This document shows positions 1-12,000 of a stretch of 52,328 nt of DNA, one piece after another; position 1 is the stretch's first letter, and the number at the start of each line of letters is the position of its first letter. The stretch comes from a bacterium (GTDB taxonomy: Bacteria; Hydrothermota; 32-111): assembly GCA_050239825.1 (NCBI GenBank), contig JBFXGO010000003.1:21277-73604 (forward strand), in the 5' to 3' direction. A program made the position numbers.

Positions 1-3000
1 AAAGCACGGTTTTTTATTTTGGGAGCGGGATTCGAACTAAACGCGAAGCGTTTAGAAACCACAGGTTTCACCCAGAAGGGGTTCGTTGTTCATTCTGATG
101 AACCATGAAATCATCCCTGCTCCAAAGGAAAATATAGACCGTGCGAAAGCACGGTTTTTTATTTTGGGAGCGGGATTCGAACTAAACGCGAAGCGTTTAG
201 AAACCACAGGTTTCACCCAGAAGGGGTTCGTTGTTCATTCTGATGAACCATGAAATCATCCCTGCTCCAAAGTCAATTGGAAAAAGAGGAAGCTGGCAAA
301 CCCTCTGCGAGGGCTCGCCAGCCTATTTTCAACGCACATGTGACTTTTTTGTCTTTATTCTGCGAAGCAGAATGCCAGAAGCGGGCTTTTCCTCATTTTA
401 AATATGTAAAATTTGCTTGACTTCATTATATTTATTAGTATAATAATGTAAATGATATTTGTCATCAACATAATGATATCAAAATATGGAAAATAGTCAA
501 TGGAATAAGTTAGGTAAAAAGATCAAAGGTTTGCGGATGCAGCTCGAGCTTTCGCAAGACGAATTTGCAAGAAAAGCAGATATTCCTTATACAACATTAA
601 CTAAAATCGAAACGGGTGTAATAAAAAAGCCATCAGTATTTGTCGTGGCTAAAATTGCCAAAGGTCTCAATATCAGCATTGACGAGTTAATAAAATAAAT
701 AGGTTTTCAATATGACTAAAGAACAAAAATTTTATAAAGCCCTGCAAGATGTATTTATCGGCGCCAAAATTGAAGGAAAAGGTGGCTTTGTTAATTTGAT
801 GAGAATAAAATCAAATTACTACTGCAAAATTGAAGATATTCTCAAAAAAGATATTGAGGCGGCTTTAAAGAGCCACCCTAAATTTAGAGATGAACTTTTT
901 GACAAACTCTATTCCTTTTTTAACCGCTATTTTACGGAAAGCGGATCAATCTATTTCAATTCAACACCATTTCATAACAATATCTACGAAAAGGTTTATA
1001 CTGATGAAAAGGATGTCATTCTCTTCTGGAAAACACAAATGCTCTACTATGTCAAAACTGACCGGATTTTCAGAAGTTTGCCGGTTGAGTTCCCTTCTGA
1101 TAGAGGGGTGGACGCCAAAGGCGGACAGGGTGTTTTTAAGTTTTACTTTGATGTTTCAAAAATAGAAGGCAAAAAAGCAAATGAAAAACGATCTTTGATT
1201 TTTGAGTTAAATAAAATCCATGAAGACGGCACAATTGTTCTTGACGTTCAATACTCCGAAAAAGGTACAAAAACAAAACAAGACGAGATACTAAAAGCTA
1301 TCAAGAAAAAAGACATTGCTATTACTGAAGAACAATTAGAACGCGCCTTTAGAGTTTTTGAAAAGCAAAGTGAAGTTGATTTCTTTATCAATAAAAACGC
1401 TAAAGCATTCTTGCAGGAGCAATTTAAACTCTGGAGCTATCAGTATTTTTGGGAAGGAGCAGGAACACCCCTGACCCCTCTACAAGAGGGGAATGCGTGG
1501 AGTGCTGATAGAGTCAATCAACTGCAAATACTTAAAGATATTGCTTTCAAGATTATTGATTTTATTAGTCAGTTTGAAGATGAGCTGGTAAAACTCTGGA
1601 ACAAGCCGAAGTTTGTCAAAAACTCAAATTATGTAATTACGCTGGATAGAATTATGAACACCCTGCCTGCTATCGCAGACACCCCTCTAGAAGAGGGGAA
1701 TAATTCCCCTTCTTTGAAGGGGTGGCAGACGAAGCCTGACGGGGTAGTCTTGATTACAAAGATACTCAATCATCCTAATATAAATGAACAAATAAAAGAA
1801 TGGCAGGAGCTTGGAATAGTAGATGAAAACTTTAAAGTAACTGATGTTTTTGAAAATTCCCCTTCTTTGAAGGGGTGGCAGGCGAAGCCTGACGGGGTAG
1901 TTAAATGGAATGAATTACCATTCGATACAAAACTTAAAGAAAGAGCAAAAGAATTACGAAAAGCAGGGAATCTATCCGAGGTTTTATTTTGGAATCAGGT
2001 TAAAAACAAACAATTTTTAGGTCTTGATTTTGACAGACAGAAAATTATTGGAAATTATATTGTTGATTTTTACTGTAAAAATTTAGGAGTTGTTGTTGAG
2101 ATTGATGGAGTAAGTCATGATGGTAAGGTAGAACGTGATAAGCAAAGAGATGACTATTTTAAAAATCTTGGGTTGAAAGTTATCCATATACTTGATACTG
2201 ATGTAAAGAATAATTTGTCAGGAGTAATGGAGTTTCTGGAACGGGAATTTAAACACCCCGTCCCTTTGGGACACCCCTCTACAAGAGGGGAATTTAACCC
2301 CGTCCTTTCGGGACACCCCTCTATAAGAGGGGAATTTAAGCACCTGCCCATTGATACCAAGTATTTCAAAGATTTAGAGCTTGAAATTTTGAGTCAGTTT
2401 GACGATTTAGATAAATCTTTAGACGGTTGGCTGATAAAGAGCGAAAACTATCAGGCATTAAATACAATTCTGCCGAAATTCAAAGAAAAAGTACAGACAA
2501 TCTACATTGACCCGCCGTTTAATTTAGATTCTTCCGACCAGTTTTTATACCGCACAAATTACAAAGATGCTAACTGGGCAACATTACTTGAAAACCGCCT
2601 GAAACTTGCCAAAGATTGGCTGAATAAAAAGGGAAGTATTTTTGTGAGATGTGATTACAACGGGAATTGGATTGTGAGATGCTTGATGGATGAAATTTTA
2701 CCAACTGAAAATAAGAGAGAAATAATTTTAAGGAAAGCAAATAGTCAAGGAGCATTGGGTAATTTTAATCCTGCGAATGAATCACTTTTTTTCTATCAAA
2801 AAGATGAAAGTTTATATTATTTTAAACCAATATTTAAGACGAGAAATAGAGAAATTAGGTGGGTAAATGCAGTTTCCCCAAAAGAAAATAAAGATGCAAA
2901 TAAAATTGTAATTAATGGTAAAGAATATATTGCTCCAAAAGGTAACCATTGGCGTTTTTCACAAGAGAAATTTAATAAATTACTATCAGAAAACCGAATT

Positions 3001-9000: not shown

Positions 9001-12000
9001 TTGAGCTTTTAGGACTGCTTATTTCAAAAGGTGAAATTCCCCCAAACGATATTCTATTTTTAGCACACAAGCACACAGAGATGACCTTTTGGACCAATTC
9101 AAAAATCATGTTGATGAATTTAACAGCTTTAATTTTGACACAAAGATAAATCTCAGAAATTTGAGGGATTATGAGAGCGTAAAGCGCGAAAATGCCCTGC
9201 CATTTGCCAAAAACGAGATTACTGTTTTTTATTATCGTTCCGATTTGATTTCTGATGAGCAGAAAGAAAAAATCGTCAATTTCAGAAATTACGATAATAG
9301 TGGCAAGTGGTACATTCTTTTGGACGAAGCCCACAAAGGCGATAAAGAAGACAGCAAACGACAGATTTTATACTCCATACTATCAAGAAACGGATTTTTA
9401 TTTAATTTCTCTGCTACCTTTACCGACCCGAGGGACTTTGCGACCTGCGCCTTTAACTTCAATCTTTCAAGGTTCGTTGAAGAAGGATACGGCAAGCATA
9501 TTTATGTATCCTCTGCCGAAATTGGCGCCTTTCGCGGACGAGGCGATTTTTCTCCGATTGAAAAACAAAAAATCGTTTTAAAATCGCTTTTGCTTTTAAC
9601 TTACATCAACAAGTATTTTGAAAAAATCAGGAAAGTTAATAACGCTTTATATCACCACCCCCTGCTTCTAACGCTGGTTAATTCCGTAGATGTGGAAGAA
9701 TCTGATTTGGAGTTATTTTTTAGAGAGTTAGAAAAAGTAGCGAAGAACGAAATTAGGGCAGATTTGCTCAATAAAGCAAAACACGAACTTGTTCAAGAAT
9801 TTAGCGACTATCCATCATTTGAGTTTGAGGAGTTGGAATGTGTAGTAAATGCCGATTTAATTTCAAAGTTAGATTACAAAGATATTTTGAAATATGTTTT
9901 GAATGCCAAAACTTCGGGCAACATTGAAGTTCTAAAAATCCCCGGCAATAGGAATGAATTGATTTTTAGGTTAATGACGGCTGATAAACCGTTTGCGTTA
10001 ATCAAAATCGGCGATATTTCCGGCTGGCTGAAAGATAAACTTGAGGGATATGAAATAAACGAAAGTTTTGAAAACGAAAGTTATTTCAGACGAATAAATC
10101 ACGATGATTCCGACATAAATATTTTAATGGGTTCACGCTCTTTTTATGAGGGCTGGGATTCTAACAGGCCAAACATACTTTTGTTTGTAAATATTGGAGT
10201 TGGAAGCGACGCCAAAAAATTCGTTCTGCAATCGGTCGGCAGAGGCGTAAGAATAGAGCCAAAGAAACACCAAAGAAAGCGGCTTCAAAATTTGTTCAAC
10301 GCAGTAAAAACACCCCGTCAGAATTCCCCTTCTATGAAGGGGTGTCAGGCGAAGCCTGACGGGGTAGTTTCTGACACCCCTCTAAAAGAGGGGAATTTAG
10401 AGCAGTTGTTTGAAAAGGTTAAAAATCTGATTTTGCCTCTTGAGAGCTTGTTTATTTTTGGGACTAACGCAGAAAATTTGAAAGAGATAATGGCAACTCT
10501 AAAAGCAGAAAAGCAAGATAAAAATTTGGGCGAAGCTTTTATCCTTAATCCTGAAGTACAAAATCGTTTACTTTTAATACCGGTATATAAAACTACTGAA
10601 AGGATTTTTGCCGAAGAAAAAGACCCGCAAAAATATCCTATTAGCACTGATGATTTTAATATAACATCTCAATTCTACGACTTTATAGGTGATAAAATCA
10701 CTTTGGCTAAATATGATTGTGAAGTGAAAGTTTTAAAGAAAGCAAAAGAAAGTTTTTCTGTGAAAAATAAAAATAGATATTATACGCTTGGCAAAGATGA
10801 ACCATCGCTTTTTGAACCGGAATTAATTCTGGACCGGATTTTTGATTATCTTGGAGTTAAAAGCAAAGAGTTTGAGAAGTTCAAGGAGTTGGAAAATGAA
10901 ATCGTGCATTTTAGAAAGGTTAGATTTAGCAATGCTGAAAAATACGAAGAAATAAGAAAGAAAATTGATTTCATGAAGCAATATCCTGAAAAGAAAAAAG
11001 AGTTAGACGAAAATTATGGCAAAATATCCGCAGATAAATATGCTGAGCAGTTGAAGCTATTTGAAGAAACAGGAAAGTATGAAGTCAAAAACCAAAAAAT
11101 CAAAATCAAGTATTTGGCTAACCATTATTATATTCCAGTGATCGTTTCAGAAACCGAAAAAATTGATTATCTCAATCATATTATCAATGTTGATAGCGAG
11201 GTAAGATTTATTGAGCAACTGGAAGAATATCTGGCCAAACCAAATAATGTATTTACGCAATTTGATTGGTGGATGTTTTCAAAGCTTGACCAAACGCTGG
11301 ACGAAGTATTTATCCCTTATTACAATCCAAAAGAAAATAGAATTGATAATTATCACCCTGACTTTATTTTTTGGATGCAGAAAGGGAAGGAATACCTAAT
11401 TCTGTTTGCGGATCCAAAAGGTACAAGCTTCGCCACTTATCAGCATAAAGTAGATGGTTACAAAAGAATTTTCGAAAGTAAGATGTTTTCGTACAACGGA
11501 TATGTAATTTCAACCAATTTGCTTCTGTATACAAAAAGCATAGCCGAAGTTGGAGAAGGATACAGAAAGTACTGGTTTGATAACTTCGTTGATTTTGCAG
11601 ATAAACTACTAATAAGAAAGAATTTGCCGCCAAGCTCGGCAAAGCCGAGCAATCCGCCGAAGGCGGATTAAAAACTTGGAATCGTCCTTTCCGTTTCCGT
11701 TTAAAGGCGAGGCGGGCGGAAGGGGGATTTGGGGGGAATTCCGCCCGCCGAGACCGTTAATGAAATCGGTTCGAATTTTTTCAAATACGTCCAGAAAATA
11801 TAGACCGTGCGAAAGCACGGTTTTTTATTTTGGGAGCGGGATATGGCTGAAACAAGTTCAGCCGCTTAAGATTAAGTACAGGAAGAATGCACAAACAAAG
11901 CGGCGAAGCGGAGTGTGTGAGCTGACGCTATGCCCGCGTGTAGCCCCAGCTCAATCTTCAATTATCAATAATCAATCAACAATAACAATAAACTGATAGA

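Follow-up and report, generated by a model that had tools for sequence, protein, structure and literature searches.

The hairpin repeats scattered through a type III restriction-modification locus in the analysed stretch of bacterial DNA (52,328 nt, hereafter the window) are probably triplex elements of the BoxC/PIT/TM type, and the DUF559 domain lying among them would be their cognate nuclease, the two being packaged and spread as a nuclease-repeat system that resembles Ssn and RAYT and is built on the Vsr fold. We assign this reading a probability of roughly 0.6.

Element copies in the mod/res island

Scanning the whole genome for the terminal hairpin, with no more than one stem mismatch, gave 14 matches in 2,115,113 bases, 10 on the plus and 4 on the minus strand, all of them within window positions 1088-10398 and none outside the island. 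A scanner that applied nothing but the triplex rules returned 10 matches in the genome, every one on these copies. The density of matches was 0.31/kb in real related loci vs 0.0007/kb in shuffled ones. Ten copies lie in mod, three in res (8732, and 10308 with 10322 nested in it) and one (7341) in a duplicate of the mod end. The earlier note had reported about 14 in-frame copies of 42-45 bp, confined to mod and res; their number and restriction to the island stand, whereas only 13 of the 14 are in frame inside mod or res, because copy 7341 lies in the duplicated mod 3' end, and the lengths range from 31 to 49 nt. The features of the locus are as follows.

128..176, plus strand: 49-bp direct repeat, left side of the island, in this genome only at this locus
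712..3810, plus strand: type III Mod methyltransferase, 1032 aa, with 10 element copies at 7 sites and DUF559 (PADLOC MTase_III, E 3e-270; Pfam N6_N4_Mtase, DUF559)
1088..1134, minus strand: element copy, site A, diverged; net gain of 36 nt over the modal homologue
1464..1494, plus strand: short copy, site B, with third strand, 3-nt linker and hairpin, lacking the loop-2 hairpin
1657..1748, both strands: site C, plus copy (1657-1701) abutting minus copy (1702-1748)
1855..1901, minus strand: left arm of the DUF559 cassette, TTC/TAG subtype
1903..2250, plus strand: DUF559 Vsr-like nuclease domain, predicted, Mod 398-513 (Pfam, alignment, AF2, Foldseek)
2251..2337, plus strand: right arms of the cassette, two tandem plus copies, TCT/TGT subtype
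3335..3383, plus strand: element copy, site E; net gain of 42 nt
3594..3641, plus strand: element copy, site F; net gain of 42 nt
3693..3725, plus strand: short copy, site G; net gain of 24 nt
3821..7262, plus strand: SIR2 (3821-5167) and HerA (to 7262) defence pair (PADLOC SIR2, E 5e-166; HerA, E 1e-269)
7288..7454, plus strand: duplicate of the mod 3' end, 167 nt, 96% identity (repeat family D3), holding short copy 7341-7373
7494..8569, plus strand: ThsB-like TIR gene (7494-7916) and an unassigned 216-aa gene, without the element
8562..11671, plus strand: type III Res, in two frames (8562-9149, 9089-11671)
8732..8776, plus strand: element copy in Res, at a site empty in homologues
10308..10398, both strands: minus copy (10322-10368) nested in the loop-2 hairpin of a plus copy, in frame in Res
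11794..11842, plus strand: 49-bp direct repeat, right side of the island

The SIR2/HerA pair sits between both copies of the mod 3' end and holds no element copy in the genome-wide hairpin scan (3821-7262). The reported frameshift of res was confirmed, a tandem 8-nt duplication near 9062-9077 splitting the gene into its two frames, and the nested arrangement further downstream (10308-10398) is present in loci L083 and L102 too. The same-genus genome G352 is without the island at the corresponding site. The mod/res locus arrived on this island, to which the element copies are confined, and the copies probably came along with it from hosts in which the system was active.

At each of the seven Mod sites, the modal class of homologues (43-77 alignable ones out of 79) has no insertion, which agrees with the earlier claim that the insertions are absent from homologues. 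Over these sites the core length minus the net gain amounts to -3 to +27 nt, and no fixed target-site duplication, as required of an insertion sequence or MITE, was found at any of the seven. Mobility of the element at the DNA level is supported. An AAT at the outer end may, judged by eye, derive from the target at some sites, although in an AT-rich host this carries little weight. The full-length structure model of Mod (mean pLDDT 55) is too poor for use; the inserts lie in coil there, which was not counted as evidence. Run X1 may be the source sample; its contigs are identical to the window over 1868-2565 and 10275-10720. Empty-site joints in X1 contigs were considered as excision in this strain and rejected, because a likeness of only 88% points to related alleles.

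Architecture of the element

On the G-rich strand a 7-bp hairpin comes first; a linker, either of 3 nt or in the form of another, variable hairpin, separates it from a G/T/A third strand. Judged from its sequence, the repeat is predicted to be a purine-motif (class II) intrastrand triplex element of the BoxC/PIT/TM kind, mostly with a loop-2 hairpin, and its third strand may fold back on the purine arm. The layout is that of a class II triplex (pyrimidine stem, purine stem and antiparallel third strand, with G-G-C and (A/T)-A-T triads); nine window copies give seven perfect triads each, the tenth match spanning two tandem copies. Triad covariation reached 250/280 vs 97±7 after shuffling (maximum 124 in 2000 shuffles), with few independent triad changes, because the covariation reduces to four related subtypes. 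The linker, in turn, is free to vary (171 distinct sequences), and in short copies its hairpin is missing, the third strand and the terminal hairpin being retained. Three short copies (loop 2 of 3 nt) comply with the ITxF loop limit of 1-6 nt, which the others exceed (14-18 nt), and the 9-nt-stem pattern of TMECO proper does not describe the window copies, which have 7-nt stems of other sequence. For TMECO, Holder et al. (2015, PMC4666352) observed the triplex with single strands alone; neither duplex DNA nor footprinting in vivo showed it. No Rfam family came near its gathering score, either within window 1-13500 or at five related loci; whalefall-1 (RF01762) was rejected as a candidate, its best score being 12.5 bits against a cut-off of 37 bits, with none in the window. 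The element may overlap with the CIR repeats (Chen and Shapiro 2003) and with RIME1/BRU-RS.

The element had earlier been taken for a CGTC REP, and DUF559 for the missing CGTC mobiliser. A CGTC end is indeed carried near one terminus by 9 of the 14 window copies, and among 278 related copies 133 start with CGTC and 78 have CGCC. However, in the passages of Di Nocera (2013, PMC3733652) that define them, CGTC REPs have an 8-9-bp stem and a 4-5-nt loop directly after the tag, and none of the 133 CGTC-starting copies shows this geometry; the tag is not always in the stem, since GTC is paired in only 38 of the 133 at the energy minimum. Neither did any CGTC-REP-shaped hairpin occur within 300 bp of 80 DUF559 genes. 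The accompanying statement that no partner of CGTC repeats is known has become outdated: Ssn GIY-YIG nucleases, with whose genes the CGTC/NTS repeats belong, bind the CGTC-tagged NTS repeats and cut beside them, and mobilisation driven by Ssn is put forward as a hypothesis in that paper as well (PMC11893778). We find the CGTC reading hardly credible. True TGTC/CGTC hairpins form a family apart, which in other homologues has inserted into the Mod loops used by the element. A small GIY-YIG gene of this genome lies between the members of a decayed TGTC pair.

The DUF559 domain and its cassette

Pfam DUF559 (PF04480) covers Mod residues 407-509 (E 6e-26, 90.8 bits against a cut-off of 20.6), and the AF2 model of the domain (pLDDT 92) matched 3hrl (E 8e-7), 3r3p (E 1e-3) and Vsr (E 0.04-0.07) in Foldseek. 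In an alignment of 59 DUF559 sequences E26, D55, E66 and D79 are invariant, while D68 and H72 are kept in at least 90%; the window domain retains E423, D452, E463, D465, H469 and D476, and has Arg475 at the place of a Tyr kept in at least 90% of relatives. Alignment and model indicate that the fold and the catalytic residues are kept, the predicted roles (acidic metal ligands, general-base His) being assigned by spacing relative to I-Bth0305I and not by residue-level alignment. The dN/dS ratio was 0.07-0.26 in seven of eight comparisons, one being saturated. The domain is a single unit of 116 aa between translated repeats, without added DNA-binding repeats and without an intron or intein host. 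Pfam revealed no GIY-YIG match in Mod, the genome's two such matches being on other contigs, and no HUH tyrosine transposase, which a RAYT/REPtron system calls for, was found in Mod by Pfam or in the domain by Foldseek.

The inverted pair said to bracket DUF559 in Mod is real, with a minus copy (1855-1901) on the left and two plus copies (2251-2337) on the right, all facing inward; the G-rich third strand of the left arm, read on the plus strand, is directed toward DUF559. It was also rightly noted that the cassette occupies different Mod sites, namely two: site C, after YVITLDRI, in six of the eight DUF559-bearing mod loci, and site D, after KDVFE, in two of the eight, the site D cassette being present additionally in the window and L003. 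The pair at 1657-1748, by contrast, is not the empty head-to-head cassette it had been taken for, because it consists of a plus copy and then a left arm, and loss of DUF559 would leave the opposite order, left arm/right arm. The element is present in 8/8 DUF559-bearing vs 16/71 DUF559-free mod loci, which differ in length and include some near-duplicates. At least eight host families carry the cassette, in addition to 38 short, mostly free-standing frames; of the 42 long host frames, 36 belong to restriction-modification genes. Inward-facing copies enclose the gene and travel with it as a cassette, which either stands free or is fused in frame within loops of host proteins that tolerate it.

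The left arms are 98% identical, and a move from site C to site D could be ordinary recombination between them. Comparison of L085 with the window over residues 361-480 revealed a synonymous change in 1 of 117 codons, as against roughly 5-13 per 30-codon block elsewhere, and this near-identical tract begins upstream of the cassette insertion. A quick-search tree of DUF559, built from 95 rows and 112 columns without the truncated L067, leaves 57 of 92 inner branches open and does not tell whether the cassettes at site C form a clade apart from those at site D.

Association of the repeat with DUF559 genes in other genomes

The triplex motif lies within 250 bp of 74 of 80 close DUF559 relatives, which come from many phyla, and of 26 of 30 DUF559 genes picked by Pfam score alone in an even sample of one class, where its density is 5.6/kb vs 0.10/kb beyond 400 bp and 0/90 after shuffling. 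It was likewise found near DUF559 in 7 of 8 distant plasmid-collection loci and in 13 of 18 loci of a Bacillota order. The copies face the gene in 62 of 82 cases for the nearest upstream one and in 46 of 54 for the nearest downstream one. A tight and directional linkage of DUF559 to the element is supported.

Genome G045 combines 190 pattern matches with seven DUF559 genes (six full and one broken), and its intact paralogues form one clade (SH-aLRT 95), each flanked by its own repeat subtype, which is also dispersed. In an order-level sample around this genome, the pattern occurs in 4 of 151 genomes and the close DUF559 subfamily in G045 alone, which carries no weight for or against co-occurrence. 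As to TMECO, DUF559 is found in 16 of the 19 genomes with at least 10 exact copies vs 54/277, the counts not being corrected for kinship, and exact copies flank DUF559 genes in other genomes. In E. coli K-12 ycjD adjoins one of 23 BoxC/PIT/TM copies; a TMECO copy lies about 170 bp from the ycjD stop in E. coli, and a decayed half copy on the stop itself. Three ycjD-positive E. coli strains have 13-29 copies vs 1-7 in five ycjD-negative ones, which have one replacement in common, the eef operon (PMC12817139), with identical junctions in four. On the other hand, repeat-rich genomes without detectable DUF559 exist: no match at E 0.01 was obtained in the draft genomes G438 (70 copies), G105 (44) and G102 (27), and a strong hit is absent from 23 of 58 TM-bearing genomes. 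No other neighbour common to the cassettes was seen when neighbours were viewed without a systematic scan. A pairing of DUF559 with BoxC/PIT-type repeats was not found in the literature searched.

Possible mechanism and alternative explanations

DUF559 is proposed to be the cognate nuclease of the triplex repeat. In analogy to the Ssn/NTS and RAYT/REP systems, DUF559 with its Vsr fold would recognise the folded single strand and nick beside it, after which host repair would insert a single copy, a dimer or the entire cassette elsewhere; the target would not be duplicated, and the loss of host bases would vary. In genes, only frame-keeping insertions into loops would survive. It is this analogy that suggests cutting and mobilisation by DUF559. 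Enzymes of the PD-(D/E)XK type form, to our knowledge, no covalent intermediate, so that the joining of strands is left unexplained; the confinement of all copies to the island in this genome also weighs against the proposal. Tentatively, DUF559/YcjD proteins might even stand beside RAYT and Ssn as a third class of nucleases associated with repeats. They would read a triple helix in single-stranded DNA, by triads specific to each paralogue, and would be the force that spreads both the BoxC/PIT/TM repeats and their own gene, in-frame fusion into other enzymes included.

DUF559 might instead be a cognate enzyme that does not mobilise anything, cutting repeat-bearing single strands (e.g., incoming DNA) in the manner of SsnA, with polymerase stalling, slippage and recombination accounting for the multiplication of the repeats. 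Such a role would accord with SsnA itself, which cuts next to its own repeat and modulates transformation, its part in mobility being only hypothesised (PMC11893778), with the block that PIT elements impose on polymerase in vitro according to the passages cited from PMC4666352, with the commonness of tandem copies, and with the repeat-rich genomes mentioned above in which no DUF559 gene was detected. Nevertheless, we regard it as rather unlikely, as slippage does not give single copies at unrelated sites, in both orientations and nested, and as the DUF559 gene moves between hosts and sites together with its arms. Homing, in which DUF559 would cut cassette-free duplex alleles like the EDxHD endonucleases and the repeats would be passengers or binding sites, is suggested by the fold match to I-Bth0305I with identical Asp-to-His spacing (17 residues) and by the L085 tract almost devoid of synonymous changes. 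This appears improbable, considering that the 116-aa domain has no added DNA-binding repeats of the I-Bth0305I kind, that the targets are unrelated genes, that solo repeats would be unexplained and that the tract is a single case in often-recombining genes. Finally, DUF559 could be an accessory domain of restriction systems, or cargo, captured by repeats moving alone or by another enzyme; the prevalence of restriction-modification genes among the long host frames and the entry of other hairpin families into the same Mod loops are in line with this. Yet 38 of 80 relatives reside in short frames with the same arms, the link extends to distant DUF559 clades with different repeats, and no other shared neighbour was noticed in the inspection described above, which makes capture quite improbable.

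Significance

According to the cited passages of PMC4666352, BoxC/PIT/TM repeats have been known since the 1990s without a partner protein or an established function. The pairing with DUF559 gives these long-orphaned repeats a testable partner enzyme, from the window bacterium to E. coli ycjD, and a packaged nuclease gene found across phyla makes their origin a question for the bench. Should the triplex be what the enzyme reads, this would provide a natural reader of three-stranded DNA with sequence selectivity, and evidence for such folds in cells. If the proposed reading is true, a large class of 'DUF559 fusion' proteins and GC-rich peptide loops of restriction enzymes would be explained as inserts of a single selfish system. 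Published triplex searches, which overlook the form with a hairpin linker because of their loop limits, would then have to be extended.

Comparison with known systems

With BoxC/PIT/TMECO (PMC4666352) the element has in common the order of C-rich stem, loop, G-rich stem, loop and G-rich third strand, the inverted pairs and the patchy distribution. It differs in having 7 triads vs 9, in a loop 2 that is usually a 9-38-nt hairpin, beyond the 1-6 nt (ITxF) or 0-10 nt (Hoyne) allowed, and in copies lying in frame inside genes vs intergenic ones in K-12; for those repeats, no partner was named and no transposase or integrase was found nearby (PMC4666352). CGTC-tagged REPs, including Rickettsia RPE-4/RPE-6, are likewise short palindromes that can be in frame, often in DNA-metabolism genes, as described in the cited passages of PMC3733652, but differ in geometry and partner. 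The EDxHD homing endonucleases (I-Bth0305I, PMC3239194) and Vsr resemble DUF559 in fold and active-site spacing; unlike the former, DUF559 has no intron, intein or added DNA-binding domain and is not bound to one target gene. Closer in organisation is Ssn with its NTS/SRM hairpins (Chenal et al. 2025, PMC11893778), a small single-domain nuclease with its own oriented folded repeats, a repeat-gene-repeat architecture and many paired specificities; Ssn, however, is a GIY-YIG enzyme with CGTC-tagged hairpins, whereas DUF559 has the Vsr fold and triplex-type repeats, and neither 'DUF559' nor 'triplex' occurs in the main text of that paper. RAYT with REP/REPIN, as far as the cited parts of Bertels et al. 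(10.1101/119735) and Di Nocera (2013) describe it, is also a gene flanked by inverted repeats that are dispersed as well, with paralogues having their own repeat groups as in G045. This architecture was found in G045 and in E. coli K-12, the copies of the window genome being confined to the island. RAYT is, according to the same parts, an HUH tyrosine transposase, mostly vertically inherited and chromosomal, whereas DUF559 cassettes cross phyla and fuse in frame.

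The restriction-modification locus and its island

The window spans positions 21277-73604 of contig C7 in the 2.1-Mb genome under study. The locus is a type III restriction-modification system, and its features (window positions) are as follows.

487-696: small gene of the Cro/C1-type HTH kind, possible controller protein, immediately 5' of mod
712-3810: Mod; residues 407-509 form the DUF559 domain, between one minus copy and two plus copies of the element
3' of Mod and before Res, in this order: SIR2, HerA, a TIR gene and an unassigned gene
3' of the unassigned gene: Res, in two frames
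9062-9077: tandem 8-nt duplication splitting res

The block from ~140 to 12,500 is absent at the equivalent site of the same-genus genome G352, its GC content is 0.32-0.36 against 0.40, and both of its ends carry a 49-bp direct repeat that occurs nowhere else in the genome; for these reasons it is an island, as the earlier note had held. Three tandem 145-bp units (1-272) lie upstream of it, a 49-bp piece of this unit (128-176) is repeated downstream (11794-11842), and the empty site of G352 carries one related 145-bp unit. The frameshift previously noted in res was confirmed: it is the tandem 8-nt duplication that breaks the gene, and homologues do not have it. This duplication is missing from no contig of sequencing run X1 (possibly the source sample), and related alleles in runs X3 and X12 lack it. 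Given the split at 9062-9077, this type III system can probably do no more than methylate. On either side of the SIR2-HerA pair stands a copy of the mod 3' end (3640-3806 and 7288-7454; 96% identity), which suggests that recombination inserted the pair as a defence cassette; in X3 and X12, contigs connect the two sides of this block.

In-frame insertion of elements and cassette

A genome-wide scan for the terminal hairpin returned 14 element copies, all at 1088-10398 and none outside the island, in agreement with the reported confinement to this locus. Their placement inside mod and res held for 13 of them (10 in mod and 3 in res, one of the latter nested inside another); the remaining copy lies in the 167-nt stretch that duplicates the mod 3' end. 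Among 79 mod homologues with available DNA (82-89% identity), all seven Mod sites (A-G) are empty in the modal homologue (27/59 to 76/77 alignable loci), and the Res sites are likewise empty in homologues. Per Mod site, elements add 24-84 nt net and the cassette adds 447 nt, every value being a multiple of three. Subtracting net gain from core length gives -3 to +27 nt, therefore no fixed target duplication accompanies insertion and host bases are often lost.

The cassette, that is the DUF559 domain between inward-facing element copies, was indeed found at differing sites: of eight DUF559-bearing mod loci, six carry it at site C and two at site D, and it also occupies site D in the window and in locus L003. 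Element and cassette are both mobile. The "empty head-to-head pair" described at site C proved to be a plus copy next to a left arm rather than an emptied cassette. Between locus L085 and the window, residues 361-480 differ by one synonymous change in 117 codons, with roughly 5-13 per 30-codon block elsewhere; in this single case the stretch reads as a recent transfer tract beginning upstream of the insertion.

Unrelated hairpins occupy these same loops in other mod homologues, including true TGTC/CGTC REPs at site C in L101, L124, L148 and L083, so the choice of site looks like tolerance rather than targeting. In all, at least three hairpin families other than the element stand in frame at sites A, C, D and F (L101, L103, L115, L124, L142, L148, L156, L084).

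The element as a putative triplex-forming repeat

The element had been labelled a CGTC REP. Repeats of that family, as described in PMC3733652, carry behind their tag a stem of 8-9 bp with a loop of 4-5 nt. The label is ruled out: 133 of 278 related copies begin with CGTC, and none of the 133 has that geometry. Around 80 DUF559 genes, no CGTC-REP-shaped hairpin was detected at a distance of up to 300 bp.

Three parts make up the element on its G-rich strand: a hairpin of 7 bp, then a linker, then a G-rich tail in mirror symmetry with the purine arm. Among 280 different copies, collected blind to the variable tail positions, 250 follow the antiparallel rules (G with G; A or T with A) at both variable triads, versus 97±7 in 2000 shuffles; four subtypes make up 236 of the 250, so that the covariation of the triads reflects few independent events. 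The linker varies widely (171 distinct sequences among the 280 copies) and, where at least 10 nt long, folds as a hairpin in 248/271; three short window copies have no linker hairpin, yet retain tail and stem. A scanner using the triplex rules alone gave 10 matches genome-wide, all at this locus. RIME1, BRU-RS and CIR repeats may be relatives. The element shares the class II layout of BoxC, PIT and TMECO, the last being the E. coli triplex repeat with a 9-nt stem; compared with them, as treated in the relevant passages of PMC4666352, its stems are shorter and its loop 2 exceeds the length allowed in published searches.

The abundant repeat that belongs to the genome itself (61 BLAST hits; 11984-12067 and 12338-12421 in the window) bears a TGTC tag. 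Two of its copies, inverted and decayed, stand on either side of a free-standing GIY-YIG frame of 117 aa (contig C27:46145-46366), an arrangement that looks like an Ssn/SRM system. A composite unit of ~370 bp (11897-12421) forms tandem arrays on many contigs, and is also found in both same-genus relatives.

Association with DUF559 across genomes

Of 574 GTDB loci found by the nuclease domain alone, the best 80, which are spread over many phyla, were compared. The repeat is linked to DUF559: it lies within 200 bp in 71/80 loci, and its density within 150 bp is 7.0/kb upstream and 4.6/kb downstream, against 0.02-0.27/kb beyond 300 bp. It is also oriented, 62/82 of the nearest upstream and 46/54 of the nearest downstream copies facing the gene. 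DUF559 resides in short frames in 38 loci and in frames above 230 aa in 42, the hosts of which are 19 HsdR, 6 type ISP, 4 type IIG, 3 HsdS, 3 other N6/N4 methylases, one type III Mod, one radical SAM, one AP-endonuclease-fold and 4 unassigned proteins.

For an independent set, 300 genomes were sampled evenly from the class of G011; 73 of them were Pfam-positive, and the 30 that scored best were used. A perfect 7-triad motif occurred within 250 bp of DUF559 in 26/30 loci (5.6/kb versus 0.10/kb; shuffled, 0/90), several motifs being exact TMECO. The motif also adjoined DUF559 in 7/8 distant loci, hand-picked from 38 plasmid-collection records, and in 13/18 loci of a Bacillota order. Among 296 mostly draft genomes (G267 unscored; G087, G165 and G310 dropped as unpublished; the centre G011 excluded), with kinship uncorrected, DUF559 was present in 16/19 genomes with at least 10 TMECO copies versus 54/277, and in 35/58 with at least one copy versus 35/238.

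Exact element matches occurred in 42 of 50 genomes searched among the 80, mostly as 1-5 copies, so wide dispersal is the exception. Against the proposed nuclease-repeat system stand genomes G438 (70 copies), G105 (44) and G102 (27), which gave no DUF559 match at E 0.01, possibly through loss or non-assembly of the gene, and the confinement of all copies to the island in the genome under study. The triplex motifs of G438 have short linkers and form tandem arrays with periods of 41-116 bp (C4, C16, C30, C33, C34; L292-L296).

In G045, 190 pattern matches in 1.2 Mb accompany six full and one broken DUF559 gene. The intact genes cluster together (SH-aLRT 95, quick tree) yet bear different repeat subtypes, which recur by eye among 129 copies in 20 fetched stretches (~390 kb). 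Of these copies 84 stand singly, and dimers have the left-arm/right-arm order in 17 cases and the reverse order in 2.

Genome G050 (L162-L187) has 13 DUF559 matches, many 33-70% identical mutually, flanked by differing mirror-plus-hairpin repeats. A weak second match (25 bits) in the genome under study (L002, C50:63480-63752) lies in a 256-aa frame with no adjoining triplex motif.

TMECO and ycjD in E. coli

The E. coli DUF559 gene, ycjD, is present in 3378/5426 genomes. In K-12 the stop codon of ycjD is overlapped by a decayed half of a TMECO, and ~170 bp beyond it there is a complete one. Our TMECO pattern, which reproduces the published counts of 23, 29 and 1, was applied to 8 of 10 fetched, hand-picked records: strains with ycjD had 23, 29 and 13 copies and strains without it 1, 2, 2, 6 and 7, which amounts to about a single contrast, because one and the same replacement, which PMC12817139 gives as the eef operon, is found in all five latter strains.

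The nuclease domain and a possible mechanism

The DUF559 domain has a confidently predicted fold (pLDDT 92) with structural matches to 3HRL, I-Bth0305I and Vsr. Its active site is intact: the acidic residues and His are retained, and the Asp-His spacing of 17 residues is that of I-Bth0305I, as given in part of PMC3239194. Its dN/dS (0.07-0.26) is above that of the Mod N-terminus (0.02-0.08), a signal that folding inside Mod could partly explain.

Triplexes of the BoxC/PIT/TMECO type were observed on single strands only, in the relevant passages of PMC4666352, and the fold of the element would form on transient single strands. DUF559 might bind the folded repeat and nick nearby, as SsnA does near its hairpin (PMC11893778, in part); repair would then insert repeat or cassette. 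We consider it likely (about 0.75) that the DUF559 nuclease acts on the repeat; that it drives the spread of the repeat appears evenly balanced.

Relation to known nuclease-repeat systems

No link between DUF559 and these repeats was found among the matches listed in literature searches, those on DUF559 and ycjD included, which covered openly accessible papers; Holder Table S2, on neighbouring genes, and Di Nocera Additional file 3 could be relevant here. The main text of Holder (PMC4666352) contains neither "ycj" nor "nuclease", and that of Chenal (PMC11893778) neither "DUF559" nor "triplex"; in a passage of PMC9881135, DUF559 is listed without comment among genes enriched at predicted inversions. 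The architecture joining a nuclease to a repeat is already known; new to it are the fold of the enzyme and the structure of the repeat. To this architecture the present locus adds filled and empty sites at nucleotide level, two cassette positions within one gene family and triad covariation spanning a long linker.
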